Shown piece after piece: positions 33,400-61,545 of a DNA stretch of 64,000 nt. The stretch is from Raillietiella orientalis (taxonomy: Eukaryota), in contig JAYWIR010000004.1 of NCBI GenBank assembly GCA_036172245.1, positions 2,976,001 to 3,040,000 on the forward strand, written 5' to 3'. The position numbers and the translations under genes are program-made. Positions within the stretch are counted from its first letter, which is position 1. Each line of letters starts with the position of its first letter. Under the pieces are notes generated by a model. The model ran no database searches. It saw only the letters and a program-made list of their open reading frames with translations, and was not told where the DNA came from.

Positions 33400-34900
33400 C
33401 CTCCAAGGATGGCGGCCGGCGTTTTCGGATCGCCGTCGCCGGGTCGGCTGCGGCGGGGTCGGGAGAGGGCGTTCATTGGGGGGAGGGGGGCTCCGCCGCC
33501 GCCGTGTGTGCATGCGTGCTCCTCTCCGCTCCCGTCGAACACACCCCGAGTCGTGGGGCAGGGGAAGAGGAGGAAGGAAGGGAAGGGGGCGAAATTTCGT
33601 GGACTTTTTTGGGGGGGAGGGGGGGAAAGGTTCGCAGGAGCACCGTGCCCACCGCACGACTCCGCGCGCCAGTGACGAGGAGCCTTCGCCACGGTTCGCC
33701 GCCATGCTCGTCGTCACAAGGTCCCTGCAGGACGAGGGGCGGCTTGCCCCCCAGGTGGCGCCTCGCCGAACCCTTCCGCCAGAGGTGCAGAAGCCGCCGA
33801 GAGTCCACCTCTTCGGCACGGTTCCCGCCCACCCCATCCCTTCGCAGCCCGGGGACAGCTCGCGATTGGACTTCCGGTGTCTCCCAGAAGGATCGGAAGC
33901 CGTGGAAGCGGAGGCATCAGCGTCAGGAGAAGAAGCAGCATCGGCGTTCTCAGCGGCCACCGCGCCGGAGGGTTGCATTTGCATGTCTGGGGATGCTCCC
34001 CGTCCTCCTCGCGGGATGGTCCAGCTGCTAGCAGCGCTCTGCGACCGGTATCCCCCACCCCTTTTGACCACCGCGACGACCTCCAGGAAGAACTCGGGCG
34101 GCGACACCAAAACAGCGACGCCGGACCCAAAGTCTTCCCGGAGCTGGAGTTCTTCTTCCCGGCGCCGCCCGTGGTGCAACTTGCTCTGGTGCACTGTGCC
34201 CGGGAGCAACGACGGCTCCTTCCAGCAGGCGGCGCAGCTCGCGACTGAACTTCCGGTGTCCTCCAAAAGGATCGGCAGCCGTGGAAACCGCGGCATCAGC
34301 CTCAGGAGCAGCAGCACCGGCGTCCTCAGCGGACGCACGAGCGTCAGCGGGAGCGGGAGACCAGCGACACGGTCAGGACCGGAGTCTCGGCGGAGGCCGA
34401 GAGCACCGGCGGGACTGGAGATGAGTGCTTCACAGTCTGCTGCGCGGGAGCACCAGCATCGGAAGCGTCGCCTCCGGACGAAGGAGCGCCAGAGGTGCAG
34501 AACTATCGACAGGGTCAGCAGGAACGGAGTTGCCAGGAGTGTCGTCTATCTTGCGCAGTGGCCGTGACCTGCTGCTGGTCTTCGCTCCAAGAGGCCCCAT
34601 GAAGGAGCCACCCGGATTCCCTCCTGGCTCCTCCTCCCCCTCCAGGCGTACCTTTCTCGACGTCCTACAACTTCGGCTGGGGCAGCGCCGGAAGGAGAAG
34701 GTCGCAGGCGGCGGCAGCAGGGCGGTTGACAGTCGACTTCGGAAACGGGGAGCGTCGCCACCTGCTGCTGACGGGGAAAAGGAGGGACCCGCAGCACCGG
34801 TGTCCGGACGCCCCGGGTAACTCTCCTCTGGGGCATACGAGTCCCCGTCCTGCTTCGAACAGCGGGAGGGGACGCAGCTTCATACCTTCGCGGGCTCCAG
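33400..34900 (+). mobile_element. ORF1-like remnant, homologous to 55500-57000 (-), with an internal ~105-bp direct repeat
   Basis: DPQHRCPDAPGNSP-LGIR (~34790, one frameshift) aligns with DPAKRSRSVQGKSPILGIR (~55950, minus). Direct repeat at 33856-33960 and 34235-34338. Confidence 0.45.
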
Positions 34901-34999
34901 GGAAAAACCTTAAGGTTCCCCGGGGGGGGGGGGGGCACGGGATCAAGAACCTCTGGAGGGGCCGAGCAGACAGGAAGCCCCCTCGCTCACGCGGGACGA

Positions 35000-35520
35000 C
35001 GCGTTCTTCTGGACTGCAGGCGGGGGAGGTTTTTTCCTCTGGGAGGAGGAGGAATCTCGCCAAGAATCAGGAAGGGACCCTCGTGGGTCCTCCCGGTGGC
35101 AGGACGGCCCGGGTAGGCCAGGGACTCGAGGGAGAGAAGAGGGCAGGGGGACGAGCGGCTCTTTGAGGGCGGCATGCTCCAGGGGGGAGGAAGCGCCCGG
35201 GCGCTCTGCTACTGCTCGAAGACACGCGCTTGAGGGTGGTGGTCCTCGGGCATCCCACCCGGTGGTCTCGGGGTACGCGGGCTGGTGCGGTAACCCTTGA
35301 GCAAATCGAGAAGGGGAGGGCGCGCTCCTCAAGAGGAGACTTCCGCGTCGAAAAAGCAGGAAGTGGGGAACTGCTCGAGGGATCCGCTGCACCCCGCACC
35401 GCCAGCGGGGAGGGAATCGAGTGGGACGGAGGACCCCGATCTGCCCTGCGAGGTAGGGTCGCGATAGCGCCCGGAGAGAGCTGGAGAGGGAGGGAGAGAT
35501 CCTCCAGGCTCCCCCCCCCT
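35000..35520 (-). mobile_element. Degenerate L1-like post-RT fragment (second family)
   Basis: RALSRPYLAGQIGVL resembles LxxPxxxGGLG; compare ARRPTDGGIG at ~58670 (+). Confidence 0.3.
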
Positions 35521-35649
35521 TTTTTTGCGGGGGTGGCCCGAAGCGCCGCCGTTTTGCAGGACTCCGCCGAAGTGGGAGCAGAAATGGGGTGGGTCGGGGG
35601 TAGACTCTCCTGTTCCCACAAGCGGGCTTCGCTCCCTGCTTTCCCGGGG

Positions 35650-36500
35650 CAGCGGGCGCGCGAGAGGCCACGGAGTAGCTTTCTCCCCCCGCCTTCCCGA
35701 GTGGGAAAGCGAAGAGGAGAGAGGGGATCGTCAGAGCTTTGGTATCCCTTCGACCCCTTCCCGCTCGCCTTTCCTTTCGTCTGGTGCTCCCCATCCCGAT
35801 CTCACCCCTCGAAGCGCTCCTGGCGCCTACCGGCGGGCAGGCATCGAGAGACCGTGGCCTCGGGCCGATGCTCAAAGCGGATGCTGTGGGGGCCACTGGG
35901 GACTCCAGGAGAGCGCCAGTGCGGGATGGGGTGAGCAGGAGGGTGCGTCGCCGCCATGGACCCCCCTTTCGCCGTCATGAGGGCCTCTCGGAGACCTCGC
36001 ACCGCCTCTGCCCCCGTCCGCCTCCTGCGAGCAGCGTGCATGGGCCGTCGCGGGCGGCGTCTCATTCCTGCCCCCCGGGAAGGCCTCGGGACTGGAAACG
36101 GAGAGGCCGACGGGGAGGTGGGAGGTGGAGGAAGAGTCCATTCCTCTCAGGAACGCCCCCCCCCCTCCTCTCAGTGCCTTCCTAGACCCGCCCCAGTCCC
36201 CCCCCTCTCCCGCAGTCCGCCTCAGCAGACGATAGGGAAGGGAGAGCGAGATGCAGCGGGACGGCTTGGTTCCTTGCAATCCCGCAAAATGGAACCCGCC
36301 TACCCCAGGACTCGCGCGGAGATGTTGGCGTCCGGGAGAGCTCTCCTGGAGGTTCCCCACGTCCGCGCGATCCTCCGCAGCCGAGGTCGGGCCGCTCCAG
36401 GAGGCGGCTCCTCCTCTGGAGAGGGCCTCTCCCCCCCTCTACCGCCTATGGATCAGGCCCTCCCCGTGAGACCTAGCAGCCCTCCCTGTCTTTTGCCCCT
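35650..36500 (+). mobile_element. Strongly diverged family-A LINE fragment (post-RT region)
   Basis: APVRLLRAA matches VPARLLASR and GLVPCNPAKW matches GWMVCSPANS of the better-preserved copy at 52605-54328. Confidence 0.5.
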
Positions 36501-37739
36501 TTGGAGGCTGGTTCCCGGCGCCGTCAAGGACCGAACCCTCTCCTCCTCCCGGAACCTCCCCGGGAGCGACCACGAGTCCGCCACTTCCGCACCGCCTCTG
36601 GGAGACCCTCACAACCGAGGCTTCTCCTCCTCTTCCACCTCCCTGCTGGTCCCGCTGAGACTGCGCGGGGCGGCTGCGGGAGCGGGGAGATCCCGAAGCC
36701 GCCTTTCTCTCCTCCTTTTCCTTCCCCCCCTCGTTCCTTGAAAACTTCGTGACAGCTTTCGGGAAAAATTTCCAGGGGCTGGAGGAGCGCTCCCATCGAT
36801 TGCGCGAGGACCCTGCCGTGGATTTCTCTTTCCGGGAATATCCGGGAACTCCACGCTTCGCAGCGCTCTTCCTGAGGAAGCGGAGGCACCTCGGAACCGG
36901 GAAAGGTTTCCTCCCCCCCGGAATCCGGGAGCATTCGGATCCGTCTTCCCAGCTCTCTCCTGCACCGGGTTCGCTTGGGAGAGAGCGGCCTCCGGCAGCT
37001 CGACGGCGACTCCAGGGACGTCCTCTGGCTCTGCAGGTGGCGCGGACGCGCCCGACGAAGGGCGGCGATGCCCCACCCTTTAAGGGAGTGGGAGTGGGGT
37101 CAGGTTTCTCGGTTCGCAATCCGGGTCACCGAGAATCCCTCTGGCGCCGCGATGTACCGCGTGTCGCACCGCTCCGGTCCTCTCTGCGCCGTTCACCTTT
37201 TCCCCCATGAATCTCAAGCAGAGGAGGGAGGTCGTGCTTGGATTTCTTCCAGGGAAGCCGGAGAGGGAAGAAGGCGACGGCGGGGCTCCTTCTCCTCCGC
37301 AAACCACGAAGATCCTCCGCAGCGCCCGGAGGCATTCAGGGAACAGACGGGGGTGGCTCAAGATCCACCCCCCTTCCAGGCCCTTCTCCCCTAAGGCCTG
37401 GGGGCAAAGCACAGGAAGGTAAAGAACCGCGCTCCCCACCCTCCCGGCACCCTTCCGACCACGCCCGGCTCGAAAATCGCCAACGACTTCCCTCCTCCTC
37501 CTCAGTTCCCGCCCACGCCGGATCAAAGTAAGGGCATGGGGGGGAGAGAATCCCTTCTGCGGCCGGGAGGAGGAAGAGCAGGAGCAGGGGATGCGGGGTG
37601 CGTTTTCATTCGAAAGGGCGCCACTCTCTCCACGTCCCTTCGAAAGGAGGCGAGGGCGCCGTGCGTGCGTGGAGGCATGAGGTGGGGGGAGGGGCGTGCC
37701 GGAAGGAGGCGATCGCCGCCTTCCATCCCCCCCCCCCGG

Positions 37740-38500
37740 AGCTCAAGGGACCTGCCGGAATGCTGGCACACGGACCCGCGGTGGAGTGGAGTGGAGGGGA
37801 GAAAAAAACAAGTGGGGGGTGGAGGGGAAAAGTGGGGTGGGGTTGGGGAAGTGGTCCTCTGCATCCTTTGAAGGATGCAGGCAGGTTCTGGGTCACGGAG
37901 GTTTTCCCGGGTGGTGCCGTCTCGTCGCCATACTCGTGGAGCGAACGGTCCAGTGGGGGCGTCGTCCTGGCTGCGTCCCCGGCGGCTACTACGACCTGCT
38001 GAGGCATCTGCCGAGGACGCAGCCGGAGGTGGTGCGCCTCTCACTAAAGGGTGTCCAAAAACTCATGCCTGGGGTTGTCCATACCGGAGGTGAGACGTTC
38101 CTCAAGGGACCGGAGGGCAGCATAGCCTGCCAGCAGGTGCAGGAAGGAAGGACGCCCACGTTCCCTACGCCTGCGACAGTTCGGACCCACTCCTCCCTTC
38201 CCGCCTGGGTCGGGCAATGCCGGCGGGCGCCGCACGAAGGGTGGGGAGGGGGGAGGGATTGCAACAGCAGAGACGCCTCTCGCTCATGCCACTCGAAGGA
38301 GAGAGTGCGACTGTTCGGGAGCACCGAGTTGGGCAGTGCCGAATCTTCCCGGAGAGCTTCCAGGGGCTCGTCCCAGCGGAGGAGTCCCTTCTCTCGTCTT
38401 TCCTCGTATGGAGGTCGCCAAGTACTGAAGAGCCGATCGTCTAGGGGCCCACGGAGCCGTCTAACACTGCCCATGTCGCCCGGAGGTGCGCGTAACTCCT
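37740..38500 (-). mobile_element. Diverged family-A LINE 3' fragment
   Basis: KGLLRWDEPL...SRTLSFEWHE...SLLLQSLP; PNCRRRRER..FLHLLAGYAALRSL; ACILQRMQRT at the C-terminus. Confidence 0.7.
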
Positions 38501-39399
38501 CGAGTTATAGAGTACCCCAGGAGGGACAATCCCATGGATTCCATCTCCGGAGGAAGGAAGTCCGTTCCTCTGACTCTTGCGAGGAAACCCTGAAGGAAAT
38601 CACCTCTTCCTTGTTCTCTCCGGTGGGACTCCCTGGAGGGGAAATGACCCCCCCTTTTCTTCACCAAAGGGACCCCCAGGAATGGATTTGCTCCTGGTTG
38701 CTTTCTCCGAAGAGCATCCGAAGGGACGCTTCGGATGCTCTTCTTTCACGCTCTGGAACTGGTTCCACGGTCCTCAATGGAGGATCCCCCTCCTCCCCCA
38801 GGGGTGGAGGGGCGGCTCGATTTTCGCAGTCGGAGGGGAATCCCGAAGGACTCCTTGATTCCTGGAAGGACCCCAGAGAGTCATTGCTATCCCGGAGGCC
38901 GGCCAACGGGGGCATCGGGTTACCGCTAGTGGCGCCGCACTCGAAGCCAACCGAGGACAGCCAGCGCCATCCTGCGAGGAGACTTGAAACCCGCGGCGCA
39001 CCCCCCGTTCTCGGCGTCGACCCTTCCCTCGGGAGGAATTCGAATCTGCGACGCATAGGTACCGCCACGAGCAGAAGCCATGTGGCCGCCAGCGCGAGCC
39101 TTCTTTGGTTGGGGTGCTCGGGGGAGGAAGGGGGTGCCTTCGGCATCGTCGTCGTCATGGGTACCGCGAGCGTCACCACCGCCTCCGCCGCCGCCGTAGA
39201 AATGTCGGCCTTTCCAGCTCGCCTCCCCTTGGCGCGCCGCAGAGGAGAGAGAGGCTGGGACCACGGCAGCGGTGGAGGGCGAGGAGGAGGAAGAGCTCGG
39301 CGACTCTCCCCATGGCAGTCCGTCCTTGTGGCCGCTGCTGCGGGGTGGCGCCTGCGCCAGCGGCGGGCAACCTGGGCGGAGTCCCCGCGCTGAGCCTCT

Positions 39400-39833
39400 C
39401 AGCGCGGGGACCAGGCTACCTCGTTCCGCAGCGAGATCCTCGAGGCGGCAGGGGTGCCACATCTCGCCGTCGCTCGTTCGAGGGACGTGAGGCGAGGCGC
39501 GTGCACCCCCTCTCCCTGAAGACCCCGACCTCAGACCATCCTCAGGGAGGGGGGTGGGCATCGGCGTACCGGCACGCGGCGGCACGTGCGCCGCATCCTA
39601 GCAACGCGCGACAGGTGGGAGCCTGCCCTTCTCTCTCCCCCCTCCTGCTCCGAGGCCCCCTCCAGCCTGCTGGCTTTGCTGGGGGGGGGGGGTCGCAACC
39701 GAGGCGGGTGGCTTTTCGTAGGCGCTCTCTCTGTTGTGTCCGAGACTGGGGGGAGCTGCTGACCTAGCGGTGCACGACGTTCGTCTGCGGGCTCTCCCTC
39801 CACGGAGGGCTCCGGTCCGCAAGATGGCGAATT
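39400..39833 (-). mobile_element. Probable LINE 5'-end remnant, copy 1
   Basis: Shares a 22-nt terminus (one mismatch) and weak flanking similarity with 42950-43422. Confidence 0.35.
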
Positions 39834-40549
39834 CGGTGATGAGGCCGCTCCTTCTCCTCCTCCTCCCGCCGGGGAACGAAAAGGGGGGGGGGGGAATGGG
39901 AGGGAAGGGGAGTGGGGGAATGCTGGTGGACTGAGGATGGGGATGGATGGTTGTAGATGGGAGGCCACGAGAAGCCGCTTCGGGATGACGGCCGCTGGAA
40001 AGAGAAGAGATTCGGGACGGAGGCGGCGCTGTCAGTTGGATTTGGGGACAGGACTGCTGCGGGACTCCGGAAGCTGCTCACGGGTGTCGGGGAAGAGATG
40101 GGGGTGGGCTTGGCCGGGGGTTTCGAGGCGATCAGATACGCGTGGGTCGGGTAGGGGAAGGGGGGGGGGAAGACCGCGACCTTGGCGGTCGGCGGGTCTC
40201 TTGCAGGCCGAGGTCAGCAGAGTAAACACGGCGCTGCTAGGGTGACGGAGGGAAGGAAACCTTTGCTTACGCCGCCGCCCGAGGGAACGGCGGACACGGC
40301 AAGGCGCGAGGAGCGGGAAGGATGGTGGCGCTACCTGTGGGCGGGTCTCGCGTCACCCAGGTGGCTCCTTTGCGGCCACCCTTCCTCGCCGCCAATCAGC
40401 GTCGGGTGGGGCGGTGCAGCCGCTTCCTCCTCCTTTGTTCTTTTTTCCTTGCGGCCGCGCAGCGCCGTTTCCTGCCTTTCCTCCCGGATCCCTGCCGCCC
40501 CCCTCCTCCCTTCCGGGACACGCAGGCGCCGAGTTCCCTCGGCGTCCGC

Positions 40550-41350
40550 GTGGCACTTACGCGCGCCGTCATTCGCTCGCCCCGGCGGCGGCCGCGCTCA
40601 CCGGGAGGTGCTACACCATGCGTGACTCTCCGGCCCGCGCCCTCCTACGCCCCGCGTACACAGGCGACCCACGCGTGCCGATCCGTACGCATGCTGCGTC
40701 GCCGCATTGCGTTTCCCGTCCGCGCAGCGTGTGTTCCACGCAGCCTGAACGTCCGCGCGCAAGCTGCGCGACACGCTCGCGCCCAGACGACAGCAACGGC
40801 CACGCTGCTTTCGCCCGCGCTCGCGCAGGATGCGCACCCCGCATTCGTGTGCACGCCAGATTGGCGCGCTGCAGGCGCACGCCCGCGCGCGCCTGCACGC
40901 ATTGTGTGCGCGTACCGCGCTCGTTTGTCTTTGCTGTCTGCCATTTTTTTTTTTTTTTCTTCCCAAATTCGCGCGCTGTGCGCACACGCCTGCACACATC
41001 GCCGTCGTGCCACGTGACTCTGTGCATGCTGTACGCATCGCGTTGCGTGCGTGCCGCCGTGCAAGCGCGCGCAGCTCGCCGCGGCACGTCCGTCGTGTCC
41101 ACGGCAGCGACAACGCGCGTGGTATACCTTCATCGAGAAAGGAGGGGAAGCCTCGCGCACGCGCGTGCGTCGCGTCCTCAGGATCCGCGTACGCGCGCGC
41201 GTTCGTTTCCACGCTCTCCGACATGGCGGCGACGCATGCGCGCAGTCGGCGTGCATTGCGTAAACGGCGGCGGCTTCCCTCCGCGTTTCGCAATGCGCGG
41301 TCGCGCTGGCTGGCGGCAGCGGCTCGCGCGCCACTGCCGCCGCGGAACCT
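40550..41350. promoter_or_regulatory. CpG-dense, promoter-like island
   Basis: Extreme density of CG/CGCG/CACGCG. Outward-facing YY1-like motifs: AAAATGGCAG on minus (~40947-40938) and ACATGGCGGC on plus (41221-41230). NRF1-like CGCATGCGCG at 41233-41242. No LINE motifs recognised. Confidence 0.55.
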
Positions 41351-42049
41351 CCCCCCCCTCTCCGTTCCGGTTCTTCCCCTCCCCCCTTCCACCCCACTTT
41401 CCTTTTTCCCGCGTTCCCTCCGTGCCACTCGGGAGCTCCGCATTTCTCCTTCCGCCCCGAGGAAGGGGTACGGACGAGGGTTCATCCGACCCCTGCCGTC
41501 CCCTCCCCTCCCCTTCCTCCTCTGCCGCCGTCCCGCGCTTGCTCGGGGACCGGGAACGTCAATCCGGGCGTCCTCCCTCTCCCGCCGCCATTGCCTGATC
41601 CTGCCGTCTCCCTGGGATACGCAGAAATGGCGGAAAGGGCGGAAAGCGAGAGGAGGAGACGCAGCCGGAAGGGACGGGCACGAAGGAGGACCCCTCGCGC
41701 CTCCATCCCCTTGCCCACCTTATCCCCTGCGCATCCCGGGAGAGTGGAGGAGAAGGCGTCGCCGCTGCATGTGCGCGCTCTTCGATCGGGGATGGGATGG
41801 GAGAGGTCTCGGAGGAACGCGCGGGGACAGGGAGCGAAGGTGGCCTGTGACCGGCCGGGGGTCGCGCCCCCTACTCTTTCTCCGCCTCTCTGGGAGACCG
41901 CGTGACTCCCCTCCGGGAGGGGCATCGTCCGACGAGCACGGGGCGGTTTCTCCCAGAGCTGTCCAGGGAGGCGAGTCCGGGACGTGGCCGCCACTCCTCG
42001 AGCGGCGCGTCCGGAAACGGGTACCCGCGGATCCGGGAGTAGGGACGCT

Positions 42050-42230
42050 GCTTGCTCCGGGAGCGGCATCCGGACGAGCGCGCCGTATCGTAAATCCCGG
42101 CCCGGGAGCGAGCGGCTGCGGAGGATCGATACCGGGTGCGGGAGCCGGAAGGATGGGCGCCACGACTCCCCTGGAGGGTCTTTGCCACCGGCTTTCGGGG
42201 AGGGGGGAACGAAGGGCACGCGGTTGGGAT
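42050..42230 (+). mobile_element. RNase HI-like retroelement fragment
   Basis: VNPGPGASGCGG...ATTPLEG aligns with FSNVSVDTCHGACGCGWILVDGDDRATLLRA at 61070-61175 (-). Confidence 0.35.
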
Positions 42231-42949
42231 CGCCACGGCAAAAGAGGGGCGCACTCTTCTCTCCTCCCTTTCCGCATCCCTCTTTCAAGGATTTCTCTTG
42301 TTCCTCTTTCCCCTGAGTGTCTTCGCAGAGAATTCCCCTCCCCTGCGGGCATGTCCCCGGGAACAGGTCACGAAAAAGCCCCCCCCCTTCCTTCCCCAAA
42401 ACCGAAGGCGCACGCGTGAGTTTCCTAAAGATGCTTCCCCGGGACTGTCGGGATGACTCTGTTGTTTTTCTCGCCCGTCATTCTTGTCGCTCCTTTTCTT
42501 TCCCCTCCCCTTTGAAAGAACAAAGAGAAGGGGAGACGCCCCGAATCCCCCTCCAAAATGTGGGAGCAGATCGCCCGCATTTGTCACGAGACTGACCTCA
42601 GGGGTGGTCTTCCTCTTCGACGAGGGCGAGACTCTAAGGGGAGCAGGAGCAAACGCTTCTCGGCACTCGTCTGCATTTTTTCGCGATCCGCCGGACGAGG
42701 GCAGCAGAGAGGAGTGGCAAGGATTGCGGCAAACCGAGCAGAGGCATCTATGAACGAAAGGAAGCACCATGCGCGTCCAGACCCGCGACGGCCGGCAGCC
42801 TGTCGGTACGATTGCTCCTCAAGGGAACGGAAGAGGGTGTCAACAAGCACACATCTTTTCTCCCTAGGGCTCTCCCCCCAAATATCTCCAGGGGTGCCTC
42901 CTCCCCCCTCTCTCCCCCGGTTTCCGGATAACGGACTGCCTTTCCCTCC

Positions 42950-43422
42950 GCACCTCATACCTCCCTGACTGGTGGCGCGCGAGCCGGGCAGCGTCGGTCA
43001 CTGGAGCAGTGGGGGAGGCCGCCGCCCTCGCTGCTCCCCTGCGGCCGGCGGTCGTGGAGTGAACGACCGGCTGCTGTGGCGGTGGGGAAGCTGCGCTTCC
43101 TTCGGAGGAGGAATGGCAACGGCCTGCCGGGAGAGAAAGGGCGTGGCTGCGCGCGTGCGAGGGGCCCCAGGTCCTGCATCCCTCTCTCTCCCTCTCCTCC
43201 TCCTCCTCTCGGGAAGCATTGTAATTGCCGCCGCACTCTTGCGCAACGCTGCGGGCGGCCTGCCGGGCGCCTCCCAGGCGTTCCTCGCCTCCGCCGTCCG
43301 GTGCTGGGTGGGGCGCGGGGAGACGAGAGACCGAGATTAGGGAGCATGAGAGGGAATGGAGCCGGGAGGGGCGGAAGCGCGGGCTGACCACCCGGTCCCG
43401 CCGGTCCGCAAGATGGCAAATT
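42950..43422 (-). mobile_element. Probable LINE 5'-end remnant, copy 2
   Basis: Reads AATTTGCCATCTTGCGGACCGG on the minus strand at its right end, as at 39812-39833. Confidence 0.35.
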
Positions 43423-44469
43423 GAGTCGGGGGGGGGGGGGTAGAGGATGATGGGGGTCCCACCCAGAGAAATGCATGCGCCCGTCGTTGTGGCAACGGTT
43501 GGTCGCGTCCGAAAGCGGCCCGCGAAGGGAAGGGGAGGTGCCCCCCTCAGCATTCGTTTGCCTCCTCTCCGTTGCTGGCCAGATCTTCTGGGGTGCGTGG
43601 GGAGGGGTGAGGGGTGAGGAAGGGGAGTTGGCGGAGGGACGACGGGTCTCCGCGATGGGGACCGGCACAGAACACGTGCAGCCTTTCTGTCTTGCGGAAG
43701 GGGAAGAAGGGCTACTACCTGCCCCCCCGGAGGGCGGGTAAGCCATTTTCCCGAGTTAACCCTCCTGAGGACCCGAGGACCGTGGGACGGTCTCCCTGAC
43801 AGAGCCGGCGCATGCATCTCGGCAGACGCTCTCCTGGGAGGGCGGGGGCTGGTCGGCCGACCCCTCCCTCGTCGCTCAGAGAACTCGGAGCAGGCGGCAG
43901 TTGCTGTTGCTGCATCGCCACCGTTTTCTGCCGCTCTCGAGCGGCGGAAGACGGGACGACGGGTGGTCGCAGGTGGCGCCGCCACCTCCGCGGGGCGCGG
44001 ATGCTGCAGACGGAAGGGGGCGGTTCCGAATGGGGTCACCCGACGACCGGGACGCCCTCGCGCGGCGGCGCGCGCGAGTTAGGAAGTGATGAAATCCACC
44101 ACGAGGAGCCGAAGGGAGGGCACCCTTCTGTTGGTCTCTCCCTCCCGCACCAGAGGATGCTTCCCTTCCCCGCGCTGCTTACCCTCTGCAGACGGGAACC
44201 CTGATACTCCTTCTCCTTGGCGGGGGCGCGGGCGCGCTCCTCCGGGACTCTCCCCTTCCGCCTCCCTGGACGCCTGCGCGAGCGTTCTGGAAGAAAGGTC
44301 TGGGGGAAGGGAGAGAGGGGAATTCGAAGAGCGAGGATCCTTCGACAGGACCCCTTCACCATCCTGGCCCCATTCCTCATTCTCCGCCGACTCAGAGCCT
44401 GGAAGAGCTGCCTTAAGAGGGAAAAGGGGAGGAAGGAGAAACCCTCATCATCCTGGTTCCCTCAGAGGA

Positions 44470-47092: not shown

Positions 47093-47094
47093 CC

Positions 47095-47715: not shown

Positions 47716-47719
47716 CCAG

Positions 47720-47950: not shown

Positions 47951-48029
47951 AGCTCTTGATCGACGCGGACGACTGCCCCTTGCAAATGGACTGCGACCGC
48001 GAGGGCTCCTGGCGCTTCCGCTCCCAGCC

Positions 48030-49140: not shown

Positions 49141-49159
49141 AAAGCACTCCCACGCGAAG

Positions 49160-50760: not shown

Positions 50761-50764
50761 GATC

Positions 50765-51133: not shown

Positions 51134-51199
51134 GTTTATCGCCCGAATTTTTTTCAATTACAATTAGCATATTAATTTTTGACATTGAATTTATTACAA

Positions 51200-52600
51200 T
51201 TATCACGCAGGGGAGTTTATTATAAAAAATAAGCATACATGTGTAGAGCCATCAGCCCTACATTGTCCGAAAATGCTCGGAATCTGCCGAGTAACCGGCA
51301 TGCAGGTCAGCGAGGTCGCCTCGACAGCAGAAGGAGAGGGATCAAACAAAACAAAAAAAAAAAGTATATACAAAAATTGGGAGGGTTAGAGAGATGATCA
51401 CCGGGTGCTGGAGGCGTCTTCTGTATCCTTTCGAGGATGCCAGCAAGTTCCTTGAGTATGTCCCAGGCGGGGCCATCTAGCTGCCGTCTTCATGAAGCTC
51501 AGGGCGAAACAGATGGTTCAGGTGGCGTCCCTATCGCGCCATCCTCCTCTAACGTAGCTCCAGCCCGTCACAATCCTCGTAGGCAGCAAACAGCTGCTCG
51601 GGGTGCGGCAGGCGAAAGGGTATCGCTCACGAAGAGGCGCTTCATCACGTCCCTGGGATTGCCCGTGGGTGCACCAAGGGTCAGTTGCGTAACGCAACCA
51701 CAGGGGCCAGAGGGCAACATAGTCTACAAGCAGGTGCGAGAGGGATTCCCGTTCTCCGCACCTACAACAGTGGAGTCCACAGTCCCCCGGGTCCAGTGAA
51801 AACGGCAGGCATTTCACGGGAGATCCCAGTGCAACAGCAGAATTGACGGCTCCTTACACTTCAGGAGGAGGTCTGATTGTTCTTCAGCGCTGGGGAGCAC
51901 TCGAGGTCTTCCTTTAGAATTCTCACCTCAGCACAATAGTCCTTTCAGTGGGACAATTGGGGTCGCAGCATCCGTGATCTGGCCCGTGGTGCAACCACCT
52001 AGTTCCCTCGTGTTCTGACTGATTTCGCAACGGACCTCCCATTTGGCTAGCTGGTTACTGCGTAGGTGCTCCCTGAGAAGGGCAGTGCTGCAGCCAGGGA
52101 GGTTTTCCTGGTAGGCTGCACGATGACGTCCTGCAGCGAGCGGATGTCATAGAAGGAGTGCAGCAGTCGCTGCTGCATCTCGGGGTCCGCTTCGTTGTTC
52201 TTGGCCCATGTGCGGACGGTTTCCTGCAACCAGGCGCTACCGTTCACAAGCCGGTAGAAGACCCAGTTGTTGGTCCTGGTCAGCTTGGCCACTCGTCAGA
52301 GCTCCAGTCCGCAAATGGACACGTTGCGTCTGCGCCGCTGCGCCAGGAACGAAGACAGTCCCACGTAGCCACTGGCTCGCTTGACCAAGTATTGTACGGG
52401 TTCGCACCAGTTCGTGCTCCAAACCTTCGCCACTGGCAAGCGTCCTCCACTGAAACTGCCGCTCCCGGCTCTCCAGCATCAGGAGGCCGAAGCCTCCGTC
52501 GCGAGGTGGAGCGCACAAGTCCTTCAGGCGGACTTGAGGTCTCCCTGTACCCACAGGGCGATTCTCAGGAGGTCCTTCATCCACCTTTTAATGCTACTCG
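51200..52600 (-). mobile_element. Family-A copy, post-RT region to 3'UTR
   Basis: LKDLCAPPRDGGFGLLMLE, SAWLQETV, CCRCGERESLSHLLVD, 3'UTR. Confidence 0.85.
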
Positions 52601-52604
52601 GTGT

Positions 52605-54328
52605 TGCCACCCGGATACGCCAGGACGTTTATTCAAAACTCTCCTTAAGGTCATTACAAAACGTGGTACAAGACCCACTAACGGCCAACATTTCGCAGGT
52701 CCTGCCAGGACGCCGGGACGCAGACCAGCGTACTCTCCTCAGCAGTGGAAGGGGATGGGGGAAAAAACAAAAAGAAAAATGAAACAATAAGAAAAAAAAA
52801 AAGAATTTGGAGGGTGGAGAAGGAGGGTCCATGGGAGGAGGGTCCATCCTTTGCAGGATGCCCTCGGCATCCTTCTTCATTGAAGCCAGCTGGGGCCATC
52901 CGGTAGCTCTCTGCAGGAAGCGAACAGCATACGAGATGACATCCCTCTCGTCGGCGTCTTCATCTTCGGCTTCACTCCAGGCCGCCACAATCCCACGGAT
53001 GCAGCAAAGTGCTCCCAGGGCTGCGGCTGGCTGCAGGGCTTCCCTCACGAAGAGAAGGCGGTAAACGTCTCTGGAGTTGCCGCCAACCGGAATCCCAAGG
53101 GTCGTTCCGAAACGTTCTCACAGGGACCGGAGGGCAGGACAGTCAACTATCAGGTGGGGGAGGGACTCCCGCTCCCCGCACTTGGCACACTCAGGATGTA
53201 CTCTCCCCCACGTCCAATGGAAGCGGCGCGCGTTGCAGGGTAGACCCCAATGCAACAGCAGAAGCGCCGACTCTTGCCACTTCAGGGGGAGAATCCTGGA
53301 TCCGTTTAACACTGGGGACCACTTCAGGTCATCCATCTGGATGCCGAACACCTCGCCCCATCTCAGAAGTCCACGCGGAAGAACACTCGGGACCGTGGCA
53401 TCTGCTAGCTCTCCCATGATCCAGCCGCTCATCATCTTTTCTCTGCCTGCGATACGGCAAGAGAATTGCCACCTCGGCGTCCGGCTGCTGTGAAGCGCCC
53501 TTGTCAGAAAAGGCATCGCCGTAGCTAGGGGGGTTGTCTCAGCCCACGTTATGCTCACGGGATACTCCAGTATCTTCTGCAGAGTGTGGTGGGCGTAGAA
53601 GCCACTTCGCAGGCAGTTCCACGTCTCGTGGCTCCTTTCGTTTAACTTCGCTCATGTGCCAGCACACTCCTCCAGCCAGGCGTAGGAGTTGGCGGGGCTG
53701 CAGACCATCCAGCCGTTCTCCTTTGCCAGGGTGGCCATGCGTCCAAGGAGAAGGCTGCATCTTCTGATATTCCGGCCGGGGCACAGAAGATAAGACGCGA
53801 GTCCTTGCATCCTGGAGACACGGCTGGCTAGGAGGCGGGCCGGAACGCACCAAGGAGTGCTCCACAACTTCTCTGCGATGGCCATAGTGCGCAATCGCAG
53901 CTGGATTTCCAAGCGCTCCAGCGTCAGGAGGCCAAGACCGCTGTGCCGACGCGGAGCGCACAAGTCCTTCAGAGGCACTCGGGGCTTCCCGTTTCCCCAC
54001 AGGGCGATGCGGAGGAGGTCCTTTGTCTTTTTCAACTAGAGGGGAACGGGCAAACGAAAAGCAGGGGATGGAGGATGGGAGTGACGAACGCGTTCCACAC
54101 GGCGGCCCGTTCCGGCAAGAGGAACTTGCCATCCCAGAACGGGCCGATCACCAACTCTGCCTTCTGAAGGCAGCTGGAACACACCTCCGCCGGAGAATAG
54201 TCGGTACACCGAGGTACTTAAAGTACCGAACCGTGGGGATCCCCAAGCGGATCCAGTCCAATTGTTTTGCCCACGCCGAACCGACTGCTACTACGGACGA
54301 TTTCTCTCTGTTCACCTCCAGTTCGGAG
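52605..54328 (-). mobile_element. Best-preserved family-A copy, RT6-7 to tail
   Basis: LEVNREKS..FKYLGVP; LKDLCAPRRHSGLGLLTLERLE; ILPLKWQESALLLLHWGLP; CAKCGERESLPHLIVDC; GILQRM; AATAAA plus tail. Confidence 0.9.
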
Positions 54329-54334
54329 GGTGGA

Positions 54335-55005
54335 GGGAGTGGTGCACAGGGGAATCCCATGAAAAGTGCACTTCATCATTGGACACGGGGGAATATGGAT
54401 GCCAAGTGTAGCAGGTGCGTCGAGAAGATCTTCCCGAAGTTGCTGCCAGACCGTGCCGCCTTCCAACCCCTTTGGGATCGCCTCACGACGATCCTAGGAA
54501 TCCCGGTGGTCGGCCCCAGGGACATTTGCAGACACCTCTTCGTGCTTGGTGCCGCACTGTCGCCAGCCGCGTCCCTCTCTGTCCTCTGCTGTCCTCGCGG
54601 GATTGTGACGACCTAGAACGCAGGAAGAAGAGGCCAAAATGGCAGGAACGTCATCCACTGGACACGGATCTTCCTGAGAACCTCCTCGAGGTGGCCCCAC
54701 CTGGGTGAACTAAGGACACAAATTGTCAGCACCCTAAACAGGGTTCAGAGGGCCTCCCAGCGAAGTGTGATCACTCCCCCCCCCTCCTGCCAGGAAAAAT
54801 TTTCTTCTAGTTTTTGTTTTTTTGTTTTTTACCGGTTTTACCTTACTCATCGCCGCGGAAAAGGACCTCGCCGGTCCACGTACCGGTCGTAGCAAGTTTC
54901 GAGCACGTGGTAGAACCACGTGTTCTACCACAGAACCGATATCTCGACTGTACTTTTATTCTTTTAAATAAATAAATGCCTCGGCGAAACCAGGTGAAAA
55001 GCCAC
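54335..55005 (+). mobile_element. Family-A 3' fragment (zinc finger to tail)
   Basis: HHWTRGNMDAKCSRC...FQPLWDRLTTILGIP; hairpin at 54907-54931; AATAAA plus tail. Confidence 0.85.
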
Positions 55006-55029
55006 CTCCGAGGAATGGCAGGGGCATCG

Positions 55030-55455
55030 AATGTGCCAAGAGGCCAGACCGACAGCGGTGCCATCCACTGAACTGAACTCCTTTTGAGGATTGCCACGAG
55101 ATGGCCCCATTTGGGAACTAAAGAACACTTACTTTTCTGCATCCTCCAGAGAATAACACAGGGACACACAGTGATACCTTTCCAACCCCCCTCCCCCTTC
55201 CCTCCATCCAAACAAACAACTTTTTCACTTTTTTATTTATCGTTTTGCTTTTTCCTATCCCCTATGTCCCCGCATCGGACCCCAAGTGAGGCAAGCGGGA
55301 AAGAACTTTCAGAAACGAAACGCCGCTGCTGGTCTGCCCGGTACCGCCAGCCCGGCAGGTCCACTGTAAAATTGAATGTGGTAGGACCACGTACCCTATC
55401 ACCATACTTGTAAGTTTATTGTCTTTCAGCAAACGCCCCACGTGACCAGGTGGAG
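55030..55455 (+). mobile_element. Family-A extreme 3' fragment
   Basis: FCILQRIT C-terminus, 3'UTR and tail cgccccacgtgaccaggtgg. Confidence 0.75.
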
Positions 55456-55499
55456 ACTCCGAAGCTGACGGAGAGGGGATCTTCAGGGAGCCGGTGAGG

Positions 55500-57000
55500 A
55501 ACTATAGGAGCAAGGGTTTCATTTCGTCCAATCATTTTCGAGATGCCGCACATTGACATCTAGCGGGAAGTCAAGGAGGTGCTCGGTCGCTTCCAGCAGA
55601 TGAATGCATTTCCCTAGTAGACACCTCGCGTTGGAGGAAGGACCCTTACCTCGTGGAAGCTCTCCAGGGTCGATCCAGGCATGGTGCGACAGCGTCCTCC
55701 GTATCTTCCCACCACGGTCCATCCGAGTCTCCGGGTGTTCGTCAGGGAAGATGTGGTCGACGCTCCTTTCCATCCCGAATGCCCCAGTACATAGGCTGCA
55801 CGCGTGCGTCGTCGCTCACAACTCGCCGACCTGACTATGCTTCCTGTTGGTAGCAACCGCGGGGAGGTCTGAGGTTAAGATCGTCTGCAAGCAGGTGGAC
55901 CGTTCCTCCAGCCATCCGCGCTTCTCGGATTCCTAAAATCGGACTCTTTCCCTGAACAGACCGGGACCGCTTGGCAGGGTCACAACGTCGGTCACGACGA
56001 GGTCGATCGACCGCCTGATCGCGAGTTGTCCGGCTCGGCAGTCCCCTCGCACGTCTCGCACCACGCAATCCACTGCTGGCTCAACAGGAGAGGCCTCCCC
56101 GCACGAGCTGGCAAAGCCACACCGTCAGCACAGCTTTACGCCCGATCTCCACGGCGCCATCCACCGAGATCTTGCAGACCTCTCGGAGGAGCGCCAGATG
56201 GAAGGATCGGAGGGCGAGCGCTGCACTGCGCCTTTCTCCGTCGTCGCGCGGCCCGTTGACACCTCAACAGGTCACTCGTGACCGACGAGAGGACGAGAAA
56301 TGTTGCCGGGAATCTGAGGGTGTGACTTCCTCTTGCTGCGCAAGCGGGACGTCCGAAGGTGACACGGGAATATGGTCGATCGCAGCTGACCGTTCCTCTT
56401 TTTCACCCTTCGACCGCGGGGCTTCCTCCAGAGGGGAGTCCCACGATGCCACGGACATTGCCTCTTCTCCAGAAGCCGGCTCTTCACCCCTCTTCGGGGA
56501 CAGCTGCCTTCTCGGGGTCTCGGGCCATCGTCCGGATACCCTGCGGCTGGTCGCGCTCTCCGTTCCGCTGGCGGCTTCCGCGTCGGAGTCCGAGAGCCGC
56601 CGCGCCTCCGCTGGGGGCCTCCTCGAGGCCTCCCTTTATGCCCGGGTGGACAACTGCAGAGTTTCCTTCAGCTCCTCGACAGCCTGGAAGTAGGCGGCAC
56701 CGTCCTTTCCGAGCAGCTCGTCCGTCGTGGTGTCGACAACCTCGATCCTTCTCCGCTTTCCTCGATCGGCGCTTCGGTCGCGTTTCGCGCGGTGCGATCG
56801 CGGTGGGGCGATCGATTTGAACGCCCGCGCAGGGACTCGGCTGCTTGTCTCGCATGTTTTCCGCGCCTCCTCGTCCCCATCTGGTGCGGATCTGCCGCCG
56901 CCTACGAGCACAGATGATGCCGTCTGTGACCACGAAAACAGCTTGACGGACATCCTTGGGGGAGGTGGCTCCCGATCACCGGGGAAGGGTGGGGAAGCCA
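55500..57000 (-). mobile_element. ORF1-like remnant with a degenerate Zn-knuckle-like segment
   Basis: Mostly one reading frame with a few stops (IEVVDTTTDELLGKDGAAYFQAVEELKETLQL...), then CSLCTGAFGMERSVDHIFPDEH. Homologous to 33400-34900. Confidence 0.5.
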
Positions 57001-57319
57001 TGCGAGGAAGGAAGCAAGCCAGGAAGGAGGAGGAGAAAAGCGAGAGGCTGTTGCACCATGTCCAAGGCTCTTCTCTTCCTAAAAGAGGGGCCGCTTTGCC
57101 CGCCGTCTCTGCCACGCTCCTCGGCAGCAGTGGCGATGACAGACGCCCCTTCGTTCCTGCCGAGCGAGGAGCGCGTGGAAAGGAAGCGGGAACCAATGGA
57201 AAACTCCGGGAAGGAAAAGGTGGAAACAAGAGGGATGGGTGAGGAGGTCGGATCAAAGAATGCGACCCTGAAAAACACTGTTCAAGCCACATCGAGGAAG
57301 CGAGAGCGGTAGAGAAGCC

Positions 57320-57710
57320 CCCTGGCTCCTCGCTCTGAACCTTGGATTCTCCCGAGGGCATGGATCGAGGACGAGTGTGGATGCCAGGTACCATGTGTCG
57401 GTTCTGAGTCGGCGTGCGGGAGGTGCTCTAAGTGGTCAGCCATCCTTCTCTGGGACATCTGGCTGGCTACGAGCGCAAGGGGGACACGTTCGGCTGTGAA
57501 AGTCCGGCCTCGGGCCGGCAGGGAGGATCCACCGTAATCCCGGTCGGCCGGAAGAGCGAAAGACACGTGCAAACGATCCCGGAACCTTGCCTCCCGCATC
57601 ATCTCCTAGGCAACCGGCGGCGAGGACCGATAGACGCAGGAAAACCGCTGCCAACTTTCCAAAATCGACTCCTTCCTCTTCCAGTTGTTTCCGTTGGGAT
57701 GTGATTAACC
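57320..57710 (+). mobile_element. Second-family L1-like C-terminal fragment
   Basis: AILLWDIWLA resembles the L1-type W.IW motif and is followed by a frameshifted GGS..RNPG-like stretch at ~57522-57543. Confidence 0.4.
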
Positions 57711-58307
57711 ACTCTTTAAAGGATGATGCTAGGCTCCCGGGTTTTATCACCCGGACACGCTGAGGAGCTTATTCTAAAAATAAACCCACCGTTCTGCCAG
57801 GACCCTTGGCCATACCACGTGCCGAAGTTCTGTTCAGCTTGCCATTTGGGGTTCGATGCGGAGACACGGGAGATGGGAAGGGAGGAGGGGAATAAAACGA
57901 AAAAAAAAAAATGGGTTCAGAAAAATCGTTTGTTTGTGGGGTTCGGGAAGGGATCACAGTGCGTCCCGCGACGTCCAGCTCGTCATCCTCTGCAGGATGC
58001 GGGCGAGTTCTTTTCTAGTGCTTTCCAAATGGGGGTCATCTCGCGGCGATCCTCCTAAGGAGTTTCGCCCGGTGGATGGCACCTCCTTCTCTCTGGCCTC
58101 TTCTGGTAGCGTTCCAAGCCTCCATCGTCCGCTCAGGGCAGCAAGCGGCTCCTGGGCACGCGGCTGGCGTCAGTGCAGCACGCACGAAGAGGAAATTCAT
58201 GATGTCCCTGCGGATGCCCCAAAGGGACATCTGAAAACGTCCCCAAAGGGGTCAGAAGGAGATTCTTTCCGTTCTAATCGAGCGATTGGAACGGAATGAA
58301 TCGCTTG

Positions 58308-58550
58308 GTTTACCATCTGGTCACTCCGGGACGTTTATTATAAAAAGTAAACATACATGTGTAGGGTCATCGGACCTACATTGTCCGAAAATGCTCGGAA
58401 CCTGCCGAGTAACTGGCACGCACGCTGGCGATGTTCGCCTCGGCAGCGGAAGGAGAGGGGCAAACAAAAAATAAAAAATAAACAAAAAAATATATACAAA
58501 AAATTGGGAGGGTTCGCTTGGTTTGCACGAAGGGTAGGAGGGAGGATGAG
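58308..58550 (-). mobile_element. Family-A 3'UTR-only fragment
   Basis: Close match to 51200-51390 (acattgtccgaaaatgctcggaa...). Confidence 0.8.
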
Positions 58551-59299
58551 GGCACGTGATACAAGCGCGTCCGCGCATTGCCCAGGGAACAGACCGCAAG
58601 CGAAGGTCGACCTCCCTCTTCACTTTGCCGGGAAAGAGGGCTTCTGTCCAGTGGACTCTTTTCCTTCGCAGCTCGGAGACCCACGGATGGAGGAATAGGG
58701 AGCGAACGGCCGCTGCTTTCCCCTGACGGAAAAACAGCATTCAAACAGGACCAGGAGAACGAGGATTTGCGAACTCAGGGTGTGTCTTCTCCCGATTTTG
58801 ACTCCCCACTGACCTCGCTTGTGTCATAGCGTAGAGAGAGGCGCTACTTGACCTCCCTCCCTCTAGGACATGCCCTCCCTCTTTCTCCTCCGGGAGTTCA
58901 TTGCAGCGTCCCGTGACCCATCAGAATCACTCCGCACCCAGAAATTTCCATCTTTGATTTCGCCGAAGGACTGTCGCCACGCTGGCACCGGGCACGCATC
59001 GGGGTGGATGCATGCGGACGCGCCTGATGCGGAAGGGGGAGCTGGGAGGCGACTGTGGAGAAGGCGCGATCTTCGCAGCCCCCACCGACGAAGAAGAAGA
59101 CACAGCACAACAAGAGGTCAGAATAGGGCACCAGCGACCGGAAAAGGGGAAGATGCATGAACAACGGTTCTTCCCTGGGACGACAACTCACTGGTGGAAC
59201 TCCACAGCATAGCACGAGCGTGAGAGAAAGATCAAAAGCTGAAAAAGGAGGATTGATGGTCTGGAATACTTCGCTTTCCCTCCTCCCAAGTGTTTCGGG

Positions 59300-60157
59300 A
59301 ACGCTGATGCAGGAGAGATCTATCCAGGCGCAACTGCTGCTTGGTAGGAAGAAAGAAACCTTTCGGCAGGGGGCCGACGCGTGAAGTTGCGGACGCTGCG
59401 ACCCCCAGTGCCTCAACTAAAGGCCTGTTACGCTGGGCTCGGCTTCCGGAGATTCCTCCAGAACATCTGGTGTTGCCAGTTGTCTCTACGGACAGCTTTT
59501 CCCTCCCATCAGAGTGACAGGAGCTGGCGTTGCCGGTCTTGTGTTGGGGTCTCTCACGCGAATTGGGGTCTCTCACGCCACTGGACCCGGGGGAGGGTGG
59601 ACCCGAGCCGTTCCGGGTGCGGGGAAAGAGAAACTCTCCCGCATCTGCTGGTCGACTGTGTTGCCCTTTGGTCTTTTGGGGCATCCGCAGGGACATCATG
59701 AATTTCCTCTTCGTGCGTGCTGCACTGACGCCAGCCGCGTGCCCAGGAGCCGCTTGCTGCCCTGAGCGGGACGATGGAGGCTTGGAACGCTACCAGAAGA
59801 GGCCAGAGCGAAGGAGGTGCCATCCACCGGGCGAAACTCCTTAGGAGGATCGCCGCGAGATGACCCCCATTTGGAAAGCACTAGAAAAGAACTCGCCCGC
59901 ATCCTGCAGAGGATGACGAGCTGGACGTCGCGGGACGCACTGTGATCCCTTCCCGAACCCCACAAACAAACGATTTTTCTGAACCCATTTTTTTTTTTCG
60001 TTTTATTCCCCTCCTCCCTTCCCATCTCCCGTGTCTCCGCATCGAACCCCAAATGGCAAGCTGAACAGAACTTCGGCACGTGGTATGGCCAAGGGTCCTG
60101 GCAGAACGGTGGGTTTATTTTTAGAATAAGCTCCCCAGCGTGTCCGGGTGATAAAAC
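59300..60157 (+). mobile_element. Family-A 3' fragment, probable donor of the inverted duplication
   Basis: HWTRGRVDPSRSGCGERETLPHLLVDCVALW, ELARILQRM, 3'UTR and tail. Confidence 0.85.
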
Positions 60158-60949
60158 TGCTTCCTTCCTCTATGGGGGGAGTGAGTCGATAGGAACTGCT
60201 CAGGCGCCGCTCAGAACGACAGGAAACGCTTCTCGTTCCGGAAAGGAAAATTTCACAGAGAAACGCTCCCAGAAAACTTTCTGGAAACGAAAGGAACGAG
60301 CTCGAGGGGGGCTTCTCGAAGGTCGAAGGGGTTTCCAGAAGAGTGGTCGGAATTCGCACACCAGAAGCGGTGGCAGGGATCCACCTCGTCTGCAGCTGAG
60401 AGGACCTCTCGTGGTGGCAGATTGATTTCTCTCTCGGGAACCGAGAACGTTCCTCTTCCACGCTTCCGGTTATGCGCATGAAGAACGGCAGAGGCTTGGG
60501 ATGCACATCCTCTTGTAGTCGGAGCGACTTCCCTCCAGTCCAGAGAGCCTGAAAGCAAGCTCTGGGGGAACAGGACGCTGCCAGCTTGGCTGCTGTGCCC
60601 CCGATCTTCGAGAACCTGCGCTCAGCTTCTCTGATTCGTCCGCTGGTCGCCCCAGAGATCTTCAGCAAGATCCGGCTCTAACGAGAACACTGGGGGTCCC
60701 CTTCCTTTCCCCTTTACTGCCAAGCCTCCTTCAGGTTTAGCCGTGTGGGGTGAGCGTCGTGGAGAGGGTGCTCAACACTCCCCTTGGCGATGCGAACGGT
60801 GCAGCTGGGAACTGGGGGGTTCCTGCCATCGGCGGAGTGCTCTGGGAAGCGCCTTTCCTCTCCTCGCTCGCTTCCTCCCTCCGTCTTTCCTCTGGGACTT
60901 CCTATCTGGATGCCTGGTTCGGGTGAAAGGCGCTTGCTTGTGGCTCCAC

Positions 60950-61180
60950 TGCCTTTGTCCCCGGCACGGCGAAAGGTGCTGCCCACGCTGGGCGCCGAGT
61001 GGAACACTCCAGCTGCGCTTCCGGGTCCGACTTTTTCGATCCCCATGTAGGGGTGCTGCAGCGTCGATCCCACGCCCTCAACAAGGTGGCTCGATCGTCT
61101 CCATCCACGAGTATCCATCCACACCCGCATGCGCCGTGGCACGTGTCCACAGAGACGTTGGAAAAAGGTGCGTTTTGAGT
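60950..61180 (-). mobile_element. RNase HI-like retroelement fragment
   Basis: FSNVSVDTCHGACGCGWILVD and FAVPGTKAVEPQ (like V.GDSxLVxxQ). Confidence 0.35.
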
Positions 61181-61379
61181 ACGCATCCTGAAGAGGGCTT
61201 GCGCGCGGCCCCCACTCGAGAGACGAAGTCAGCGAGAAGATAGCCACCGTTCTTGTGCCACCATCTTGCGGGAGCTGTAGGAGAGTGTCAGCAGCACCTG
61301 TGGTGCGCCCAACCCCCCGCTTTCCAACCATCAATTTATTTATCCTCCCTATTCGGACACTGCTACGAGCAAGGTTCTT

Positions 61380-61545
61380 CGGCTGACCAGCGACTCTGCG
61401 AACCCTCCTGACTGGACTTTTTATTCCTCATTTTTTTTTTTTCCCGTTCGCGAGGAACGACGACGTTCCTTGTTTTTGCACGCTGCCTCCCCCCCCTCCC
61501 CATTCTTCAATAAATAAAGGCCCTGGAGTGACCAGGTGAAAAGCC
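61380..61545 (+). mobile_element. Family-A-like 3'UTR/tail fragment
   Basis: aataaataaaggccctggagtgaccaggtgaaaagcc tail. Confidence 0.7.

Follow-up and report, generated by a model that had tools for sequence, protein, structure and literature searches.

A dense, mixed-orientation LINE block in Raillietiella orientalis as a likely nest of one L1-clade group inserting at preferred sites

Introduction

How does a dense block of retrotransposon fragments, abutting one another on both strands, come about? The question is raised by a 64,000-nucleotide stretch of the genome of Raillietiella orientalis (assembly GCA_036172245.1, contig JAYWIR010000004.1, positions 2,976,001 to 3,040,000 of the forward strand; hereafter the window), in which fragments of long interspersed nuclear elements (LINEs) are piled up. 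A sequence-only reading of the window described a 28-kb pile-up of one L1/Tx1-like family (33,400-61,545) and proposed that it is either a source of PIWI-interacting RNAs (piRNAs) or endogenous small interfering RNAs (endo-siRNAs), or a family that prefers to insert into its own copies. From our analysis, the core of the block is likely a nest that grew as members of one L1-clade LINE group, here called group B, inserted repeatedly at preferred sites through target priming.

Results

A 17-kb block made of one LINE group

We mapped the window with LINE profiles trained on natural copies from outside it (four repeat profiles in all). The real pile-up is 17 kb long (44,651-61,545), not 28 kb. Group B covered 97% of 44,651-56,750 and 81% of the whole 17 kb (32% on the plus strand and 49% on the minus strand), but 6% of 33,400-44,650, where a single fragment lies at 37,800-38,390. 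These left 11 kb hold two other dispersed repeats, and about 80% of them matched none of the four profiles. The remainder of the first description stood up better: group coverage of 1-33,399 was 0%, 16 pieces or elements and two short tail stubs were mapped where about 15 fragments had been counted, and the pieces do abut on both strands. Their best identities to any other copy compared ranged from 59% to 89%, with the exception of a 97% tract and a piece that had no match, so their ages or lineages differ. Within the block, positions 48,001-56,000 were 98% group B, compared with at most 35% in each of 31 random 8-kb tiles from contigs C1-C58. A six-frame Pfam search of 33,001-62,102 returned only one weak zf-RVT match, the LINE pieces being too decayed, and Rfam gave no match in the window. 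The mapped pieces are listed below, with positions in the element given on the model of its full length, where H marks hosts, E marks inserted elements and ORF stands for open reading frame.

44,659-45,417, minus: H0, old ORF2 3' part in two pieces; hosts the H1 3' end, in sense, at about position 4560
45,419-47,088, minus: H1 3' part, model 3840-5559; stops at AATAAA and lacks the terminal hairpin motif
47,090-47,713, plus: E4, 5'-truncated; antisense in H1 at 3852; flank TCCAG
47,715-48,348, minus: H1 reverse-transcriptase pieces, model 3071-3520 and 3658-3852
48,362-49,138, plus: E5, 5'-truncated; antisense in H1 at about 3070; 13-bp target-site duplication that starts ACCAA
49,147-49,413, minus: H1 piece, model 2810-3061
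49,414-51,203, plus (stubs minus): three ORF2 pieces and two minus-strand tail stubs
51,204-52,564, minus: E8, 5'-truncated; best identity 78%; tail adjoins the second stub (by eye)
52,604-54,322, minus: E9, youngest long copy, 89% identical to locus L100; sense in E8 at about 4130
54,339-55,000, plus: E10, 5'-truncated; sense in E11; flank GCCAC
55,005-55,456, plus: E11, old 3' end; antisense in H1 at 2654
55,457-56,722, minus: H1 ORF1 end and endonuclease domain, model 1329-2654
57,741-58,259, minus: E12, with the left arm (57,741-58,223) of a 484-bp inverted repeat
58,310-58,513, minus: E13, 200-bp 3' end; perfect 11-bp target-site duplication containing ACCAA
59,333-60,157, plus: E14, with the right arm (59,675-60,157) of the inverted repeat
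61,185-61,542, plus: E15, decayed 3' end that retains the terminal motif; flank GCCAC; weak match, E about 5e-7

Five minus-strand stretches are colinear on the model: 56,722-55,457 (1329-2654), 49,413-49,147 (2810-3061), 48,348-47,929 (3071-3520), 47,912-47,715 (3658-3852), and 47,088-45,419 (3840-5559). We infer that they are one old host, H1, split by younger 5'-truncated inserts of several sub-lineages. Identity to the best relative is 59-73% for the H1 pieces (one tract aside) and up to 78-89% for the inserts, which fits this nesting order. Target-site duplications exceeded the null for 2 of 13 window candidates, namely E5 inside H1 (12 of 13 bases identical, score 10 against a null maximum of 9) and E13, which sits outside H1 in DNA not recognised as LINE. 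Seven of the 12 distinct window tails lie inside a group B host, four antisense and three sense; with 34 antisense and 22 sense in the genome sample (p 0.14), antisense-only nesting was not supported. Twin priming was rejected for the 54,322/54,339 joint, as each piece has its own 3' end. Between H1 and E8, plus-strand ORF2 pieces (49,414-50,131, 50,176-50,769, and 50,774-51,134) alternate with the tail stubs (about 50,132-50,175 and 51,135-51,203). This tail-stub junction occurs twice, and part of 49,414-51,203 is therefore a local DNA duplication.

Group B is an L1-type group of many sub-lineages

The genome assembly (210 Mb, 491 contigs) carries at least two L1-type groups, A and B, and the window belongs to B. 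Group A gives the top reverse-transcriptase (RT) scores in the genome, yet it is 24% identical to the window and was rejected as its family. Young L1-type copies of family A (L102 and L103 at G000:C71:70000-90000, and matches on C114) have a long open ORF2 on the same strand; on small contigs they lie about 5.2-5.7 kb apart, resembling head-to-tail arrays. Intact group B copies (L094-L097) have an ORF1 with a CCHC knuckle followed by an ORF2 of 1,198-1,212 amino acids (aa) with an N-terminal apurinic/apyrimidinic (AP) endonuclease, RT, and a C-terminal cysteine motif (zf-RVT). This is the L1-group layout, the window pieces match these copies, and 5'-truncated copies with target-site duplications, another L1-group trait, are present.

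The closest solved structure to the group B ORF2 is human LINE-1 ORF2p (PDB 8sxt and others; E 3e-44). In a homologue search, the top matches were about 30-34% identical and included Xenopus Tx1 and a zebrafish pol-like protein; a 619-aa protein in a second library was 65% identical. In two quick trees with few named references, groups B and A were long-branch sisters outside the sampled Tx1 cluster, and six Tx1-side rows branched without group B at an SH-like approximate likelihood-ratio (SH-aLRT) support of 100 (84 in the other tree), again on long branches. A joint clade of the Tx1-side rows with groups A and B was not rejected by the approximately unbiased test (p-AU 0.38). Hence, of the L1/Tx1-like label, the L1-type domains are borne out, whereas Tx1 is not shown: the RT falls outside the sampled Tx1 cluster, with a sister position not rejected.

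What had been called one family is one clade, but of many sub-lineages whose 3' untranslated regions differ and which have a common end, AATAAA plus a 24-nt motif. The strict form of this motif had 399 exact genome matches, against 0 for the control. The motif was rejected as a common target because it is the end of the element itself and precedes different duplications. Elements end in this conserved hairpin-like motif with two to four A, and their target-site duplications are 11-18 bp long. The terminal hairpin was no more stable than shuffled sequences in five folds (z -1.1 to +1.2).

Insertions follow short lineage-specific words and recur at positions in ORF2

We examined the flanks of 100 of the 399 strict tails; 30 had been used to train profiles, and the other 70 formed a clean set. 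Of these 70 young tails, 18 lie in group B copies, 1 in the probable short interspersed nuclear element (SINE; Repeat D below), and 51 were not assigned by the profiles. Own-group flanks were thus enriched over control pieces (18/70 versus 27/350; Fisher p 6e-5).

The tabulated flanks were non-random at the level of single lineages as well. First, WCAR directly follows 26 of 31 tails in one lineage, where chance is 1 in 64. Second, 12 of 13 tail flanks of another lineage start with CT plus a pyrimidine. Third, in a mixed set of 13, ATTTCAA follows six tails and ACCRA three. CRCCRAA follows 31 of 87 tails of the E9 lineage. Across the sampled sub-lineages, the words at the start of the duplication were WCARY, CTYCC, ATTTCAA, ACCAA, CRCCRA, and ATCATCC. 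Where a locus has both ends, the 11-18-bp duplication begins with the word, which therefore belongs to the target; the upstream copy of the duplication contains the lineage word in L108, L112, L119, L132, and L133. The window flanks fit these words: ACCAA is found with E5, E13, and the stubs, CACCGA with E9 (which has a GTGGCA-type end), and CTCCGAA with E11 (one mismatch).

Insertions also recur at the same positions. In a set of 200 non-redundant tails, which is biased towards group B hosts and was kept out of the enrichment test, 56 map into group B and form 53 pairs within 3 nt of each other, compared with a uniform-null mean of 1.3 and maximum of 7. Antisense position 1961 is used at eight loci. 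In the three of these that were compared, the inserts are 92-95% identical and the hosts 65-71%, which argues against one transduced unit. Antisense position 2654 is used at five loci, the window junction at 55,456 (E11) and L075, L076, L086, and L090, at the same nucleotide in diverged hosts. With a matrix built from flanks other than the hot spots, six of seven 1961 junctions outrank all but 0-11 of 11,152 intact-element positions, so a short DNA word may suffice. Longer complementarity between the last 300 nt of the element and the 1961 site did not rise above background (8 nt).

Three further observations concern placement. At L098 9744 (minus strand), an inserted tail lies antisense at about 3481, where the RT D-L-x-K-A-F-D motif is encoded. 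At G000:C37:501637-502266, three same-strand tails of one lineage fall in 630 bases with the same target word after each. L094, L095, L097, and L099 are young same-strand arrays in which a tail is followed by the ORF1 3' part of another copy, at about 1200-1350.

Comparable nests occur elsewhere in the genome

To set the window against the genome, we drew 80 random 8-kb tiles and obtained 35. Mean group B coverage was about 10% (bootstrap 4-17%): 23 tiles had none, six had at least 30%, and two, both on small contigs, had at least 50%. The window is in the upper tail of group B density for large contigs. Seven other 10-kb stretches, six around intact ORF2 copies and one on the same contig, were 86-100% group B, and 12 of 27 loci around ordinary matches were at least 70% group B, several on both strands; all were chosen for holding a copy and also trained profiles, and show existence, not frequency. 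Hence, with a group that makes up about 10% of the genome and with nests of 86-100% elsewhere, the locus is not unique. Young tails were clustered on contigs C1-C10, with 21 of 91 having a neighbour within 20 kb against a null mean of 4.8 (three duplicated partners dropped), and group B tails were dispersed over every large contig listed.

Near-identical tracts are inverted

Three pairs of near-identical tracts involve the window, and all three are inverted. The H1 tract at about 45,500-46,470 and a copy that lies 70 kb from it (G000:C4:3092381-3093428) agree in 897 of 900 columns. The distant copy carries an 11-bp duplication and a terminal motif of its own, and its ends have diverged. This pattern is consistent with gene conversion between insertions that are both old; the alternative would be a template-switch chimera. 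The arms of the inverted repeat (57,741-58,223 and 59,675-60,157) have four differences in 484 columns (99.2%) and different flanks, and the next best genomic match to an arm among 40 scored candidates is 76% identical; conversion and local duplication would both fit. In the third pair, 46,259-46,382 and 50,774-50,897 are 91% identical. At L113/L114, L126/L127, and L231/L232, near-identical inverted pairs lie 9-13 kb apart and include LINE tails and flanks. This genome seems often to have undergone inverted duplication or conversion.

Genomic setting

The block sits in a non-coding gap between two genes. On its left, a BTB/POZ exon (Pfam E 2e-26), presumably akin to arthropod bric-a-brac/tramtrack proteins, lies at 4,964-5,932 on the minus strand. 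On its right, minus-strand laminin-alpha 3' exons with short introns lie just beyond the window (L041 1-6000), pointing at the nest; the stop is at about 63,860 (by eye), and the part within the window runs from about 63,860 to 64,000. The other features mapped are as follows.

33,969-34,757, strand unassigned: Repeat C, a dispersed unit of about 0.8 kb and no assigned class; its ends are fairly sharp, and it shares 66-77% identity with other loci
37,800-38,390, minus: very old group B ORF2 3' fragment (match E 8e-43; best identity 60%); no other lies left of 44,650
38,385-39,070, minus: Repeat D, dispersed; its right end has a B-box-like word and its left end is A-rich

A 100-bp piece of Repeat C occurs again at 33,855-33,958. 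Compared with the LINE group, Repeat C gave no significant protein match. Several copies have a left edge that resembles a splice acceptor, and on the minus strand there may be the start of an Ala/Asp/Pro-rich protein. Repeat D is probably a tRNA-headed SINE, judged by its B-box-like motif. Its B-box-like word is kept in five of seven aligned rows (by eye), and ARAGORN found no tRNA gene in it.

Over the 27 kb to the right of the BTB exon there is no match to any of the four repeat profiles; the regulatory DNA of a developmental gene would be expected to look like this. Plus-strand open frames at about 62,200-63,300 look coding and gave no Pfam match; they may belong to a small gene that converges with laminin. 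Positions 40,560-41,340 are rich in CG and GC dinucleotides (about 69% GC) without a profile match, and CAAGATGG words lie near 33,405, 39,820, and 43,410. Long blocks of 60-70% GC flanking the window (L053-L051 and L042-L043) have almost no match to the four repeat profiles. High GC was rejected as a marker of dead LINE DNA, as the GC-rich neighbours carry laminin exons or no match.

Discussion

The nest and its likely origin

The nest of group B insertions could form as follows. Target-primed reverse transcription would start at a short lineage-specific target word, and these words would lie in conserved ORF2 codons. Each landed copy would then offer new targets to sister lineages, and nests would grow by feedback and reinforce themselves. 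Successive inserts that split one old minus-strand host would produce most of the head-to-head and tail-to-tail joints, so that the mixed orientation appears to be largely a product of nesting. Clustering is probably increased further by the fact that insertions into dead copies are neutral, and later non-allelic gene conversion would have homogenised nearby inverted copies. As to how the word is picked, we lean towards the endonuclease; pairing between the 3' end of the RNA and the nicked strand is a possible, less favoured route.

The preference for own copies that the sequence-only reading had considered survives in a weak form, in the own-group enrichment and the recurrent positions. It belongs to the elements throughout the genome and not to this locus. 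About three quarters of insertions land outside own copies; group B therefore has a preference and is not strictly self-targeting.

Several results weigh against nesting at preferred sites. First, 51 of the 70 young tails fall in nothing recognised by the profiles, the control own-group rate has an interval of 3-13% (tile bootstrap), and the own-copy enrichment is inseparable from selection. Second, the words were derived from the same data used to test them. A fourth lineage (CATATC type, 14 tails) has no clear word, and CRCCRAA follows 11 of 61 tails on large contigs versus 20 of 26 on small ones, with duplicated segments still included. Third, the recurrence null is uniform, and near-duplicate loci were dropped only at 37 of 40 identical flank bases. 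Finally, in the window itself, only seven of the 12 distinct tails have an own-group host, and one alone matches a recurrent position exactly. The block 49,414-55,456 has no flanking duplication and 156 model positions are missing there, and the insertion of E4 in H1 has only a weak candidate duplication (7/8, not above the null).

Relation to known target-specific LINEs

In PMC4494074, Tx1-clade LINEs with a target preference include Tx1 in Tx1D, Tx1-Mar in Mariner-N4_AMi, Tx1-9_AMi in Harbinger, and Kibi and Koshi in microsatellites, and a preference is called when one kind of sequence makes up >20% of flanks. Group B lies at the border of that threshold, with 18/70 own-group flanks (26%) and 7/31 tails of one lineage at one position (23%). 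Like these elements, as that text presents them, group B is an AP-endonuclease (APE)-type retrotransposon without long terminal repeats whose relatives prefer differing targets, other transposons among them, and whose preference may be partial. It differs in that its recurrent targets are its own ORF2 codons, with words of only 4-7 nt, in its arthropod-like host, and in its RT outside the sampled Tx1 cluster.

Zepp and ZeppL are L1-clade LINEs of green algae; according to PMC8226300, each chromosome has a single Zepp cluster, and no ZeppL copies lie outside the centromeres. By that account, both they and group B insert into existing copies and build clusters of mostly 5'-truncated 3' ends, in group B through a partial preference only. 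Group B is not confined to one cluster per chromosome: it is dispersed over all large contigs and inserts mostly outside its own copies, in both orientations. Its behaviour is a variant that resembles both Tx1-type preference and Zepp self-nesting.

Group B and human LINE-1 ORF2p share an endonuclease, RT, a C-terminal cysteine motif, and target-site duplications. In human L1 the tail is poly(A) and the target consensus is A/T-rich, whereas group B has a hairpin-like end, two to four A, and lineage-specific words. A partial literature search, which did not cover Repbase, found no paper on arthropod L1-type lineages that reuse sites in their own ORF2.

Other explanations

A further-reaching version of the nesting model is that a guild of sub-lineages has split its own ORF2 into lineage-specific landing sites, with antisense nesting and conversion-kept inverted arms making nests self-assembled sources of double-stranded or antisense RNA. 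We consider this unlikely. If true, small-RNA loci would arise from the elements' own targeting and not from a host trap.

A passive graveyard, in which random insertions survive in the BTB-laminin non-coding gap because insertion into dead copies is costless, is a rather poor candidate as a full account. It would suit a group that is as abundant (about 10%, interval 4-17%) and patchy (none in 23 of 35 tiles) as group B, with most young tails outside own copies and with the 33 kb adjoining the BTB gene free of all four profiled repeats. Selection cannot, however, yield lineage-specific words or the use of the same nucleotide in diverged hosts. Passive survival probably contributes to the clustering but is insufficient alone.

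A dedicated piRNA cluster or endo-siRNA trap, transcribed through the block, for example by minus-strand laminin read-through, is improbable. Both strands of 44,651-61,545 are covered, the 484-bp near-perfect inverted repeat would make a long duplex if transcribed, the genome has one Maelstrom-family match, and the minus-strand laminin-alpha exons lie just to the right. Drosophila dual-strand piRNA clusters, as described in PMC10697812, similarly hold dense fragmented transposon DNA on both strands. In that account they are defined by their piRNA output and comprise many different transposable-element families, whereas the block is one of many similar nests of a single clade: the core is 97% one clade, and the left 11 kb adds two repeats. 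The other dense stretches described above make the locus one of a kind that is repeated across the genome, nesting accounts for the orientations without a trap, and no promoter or expression evidence turned up. A search for RNA-dependent RNA polymerase gave no signal anywhere and was uninformative. Secondary small-RNA output from such nests may nevertheless occur.

An artefact of assembly or polishing, as the source of either the pile-up or its near-identical tracts, is very improbable: near-identical inverted pairs do occur elsewhere too (L113/L114 and L126/L127), but most pieces are 59-89% identical to their best relatives and have colinear hosts and target-site duplications, the partner 70 kb off has its own duplication, terminal motif, and diverged ends, and the inverted arms differ at four of 484 columns and in their flanks.

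Implications

The locus, one of many and ordinary in this genome, is of interest as an example. Nesting by itself can generate dense LINE blocks of mixed orientation, and sequence is not enough to call such blocks piRNA clusters. Group B offers a set of related L1-type proteins with differing short words, together with intact ORF2 copies, and such proteins allow direct testing of how the specificity of APE retrotransposons changes.

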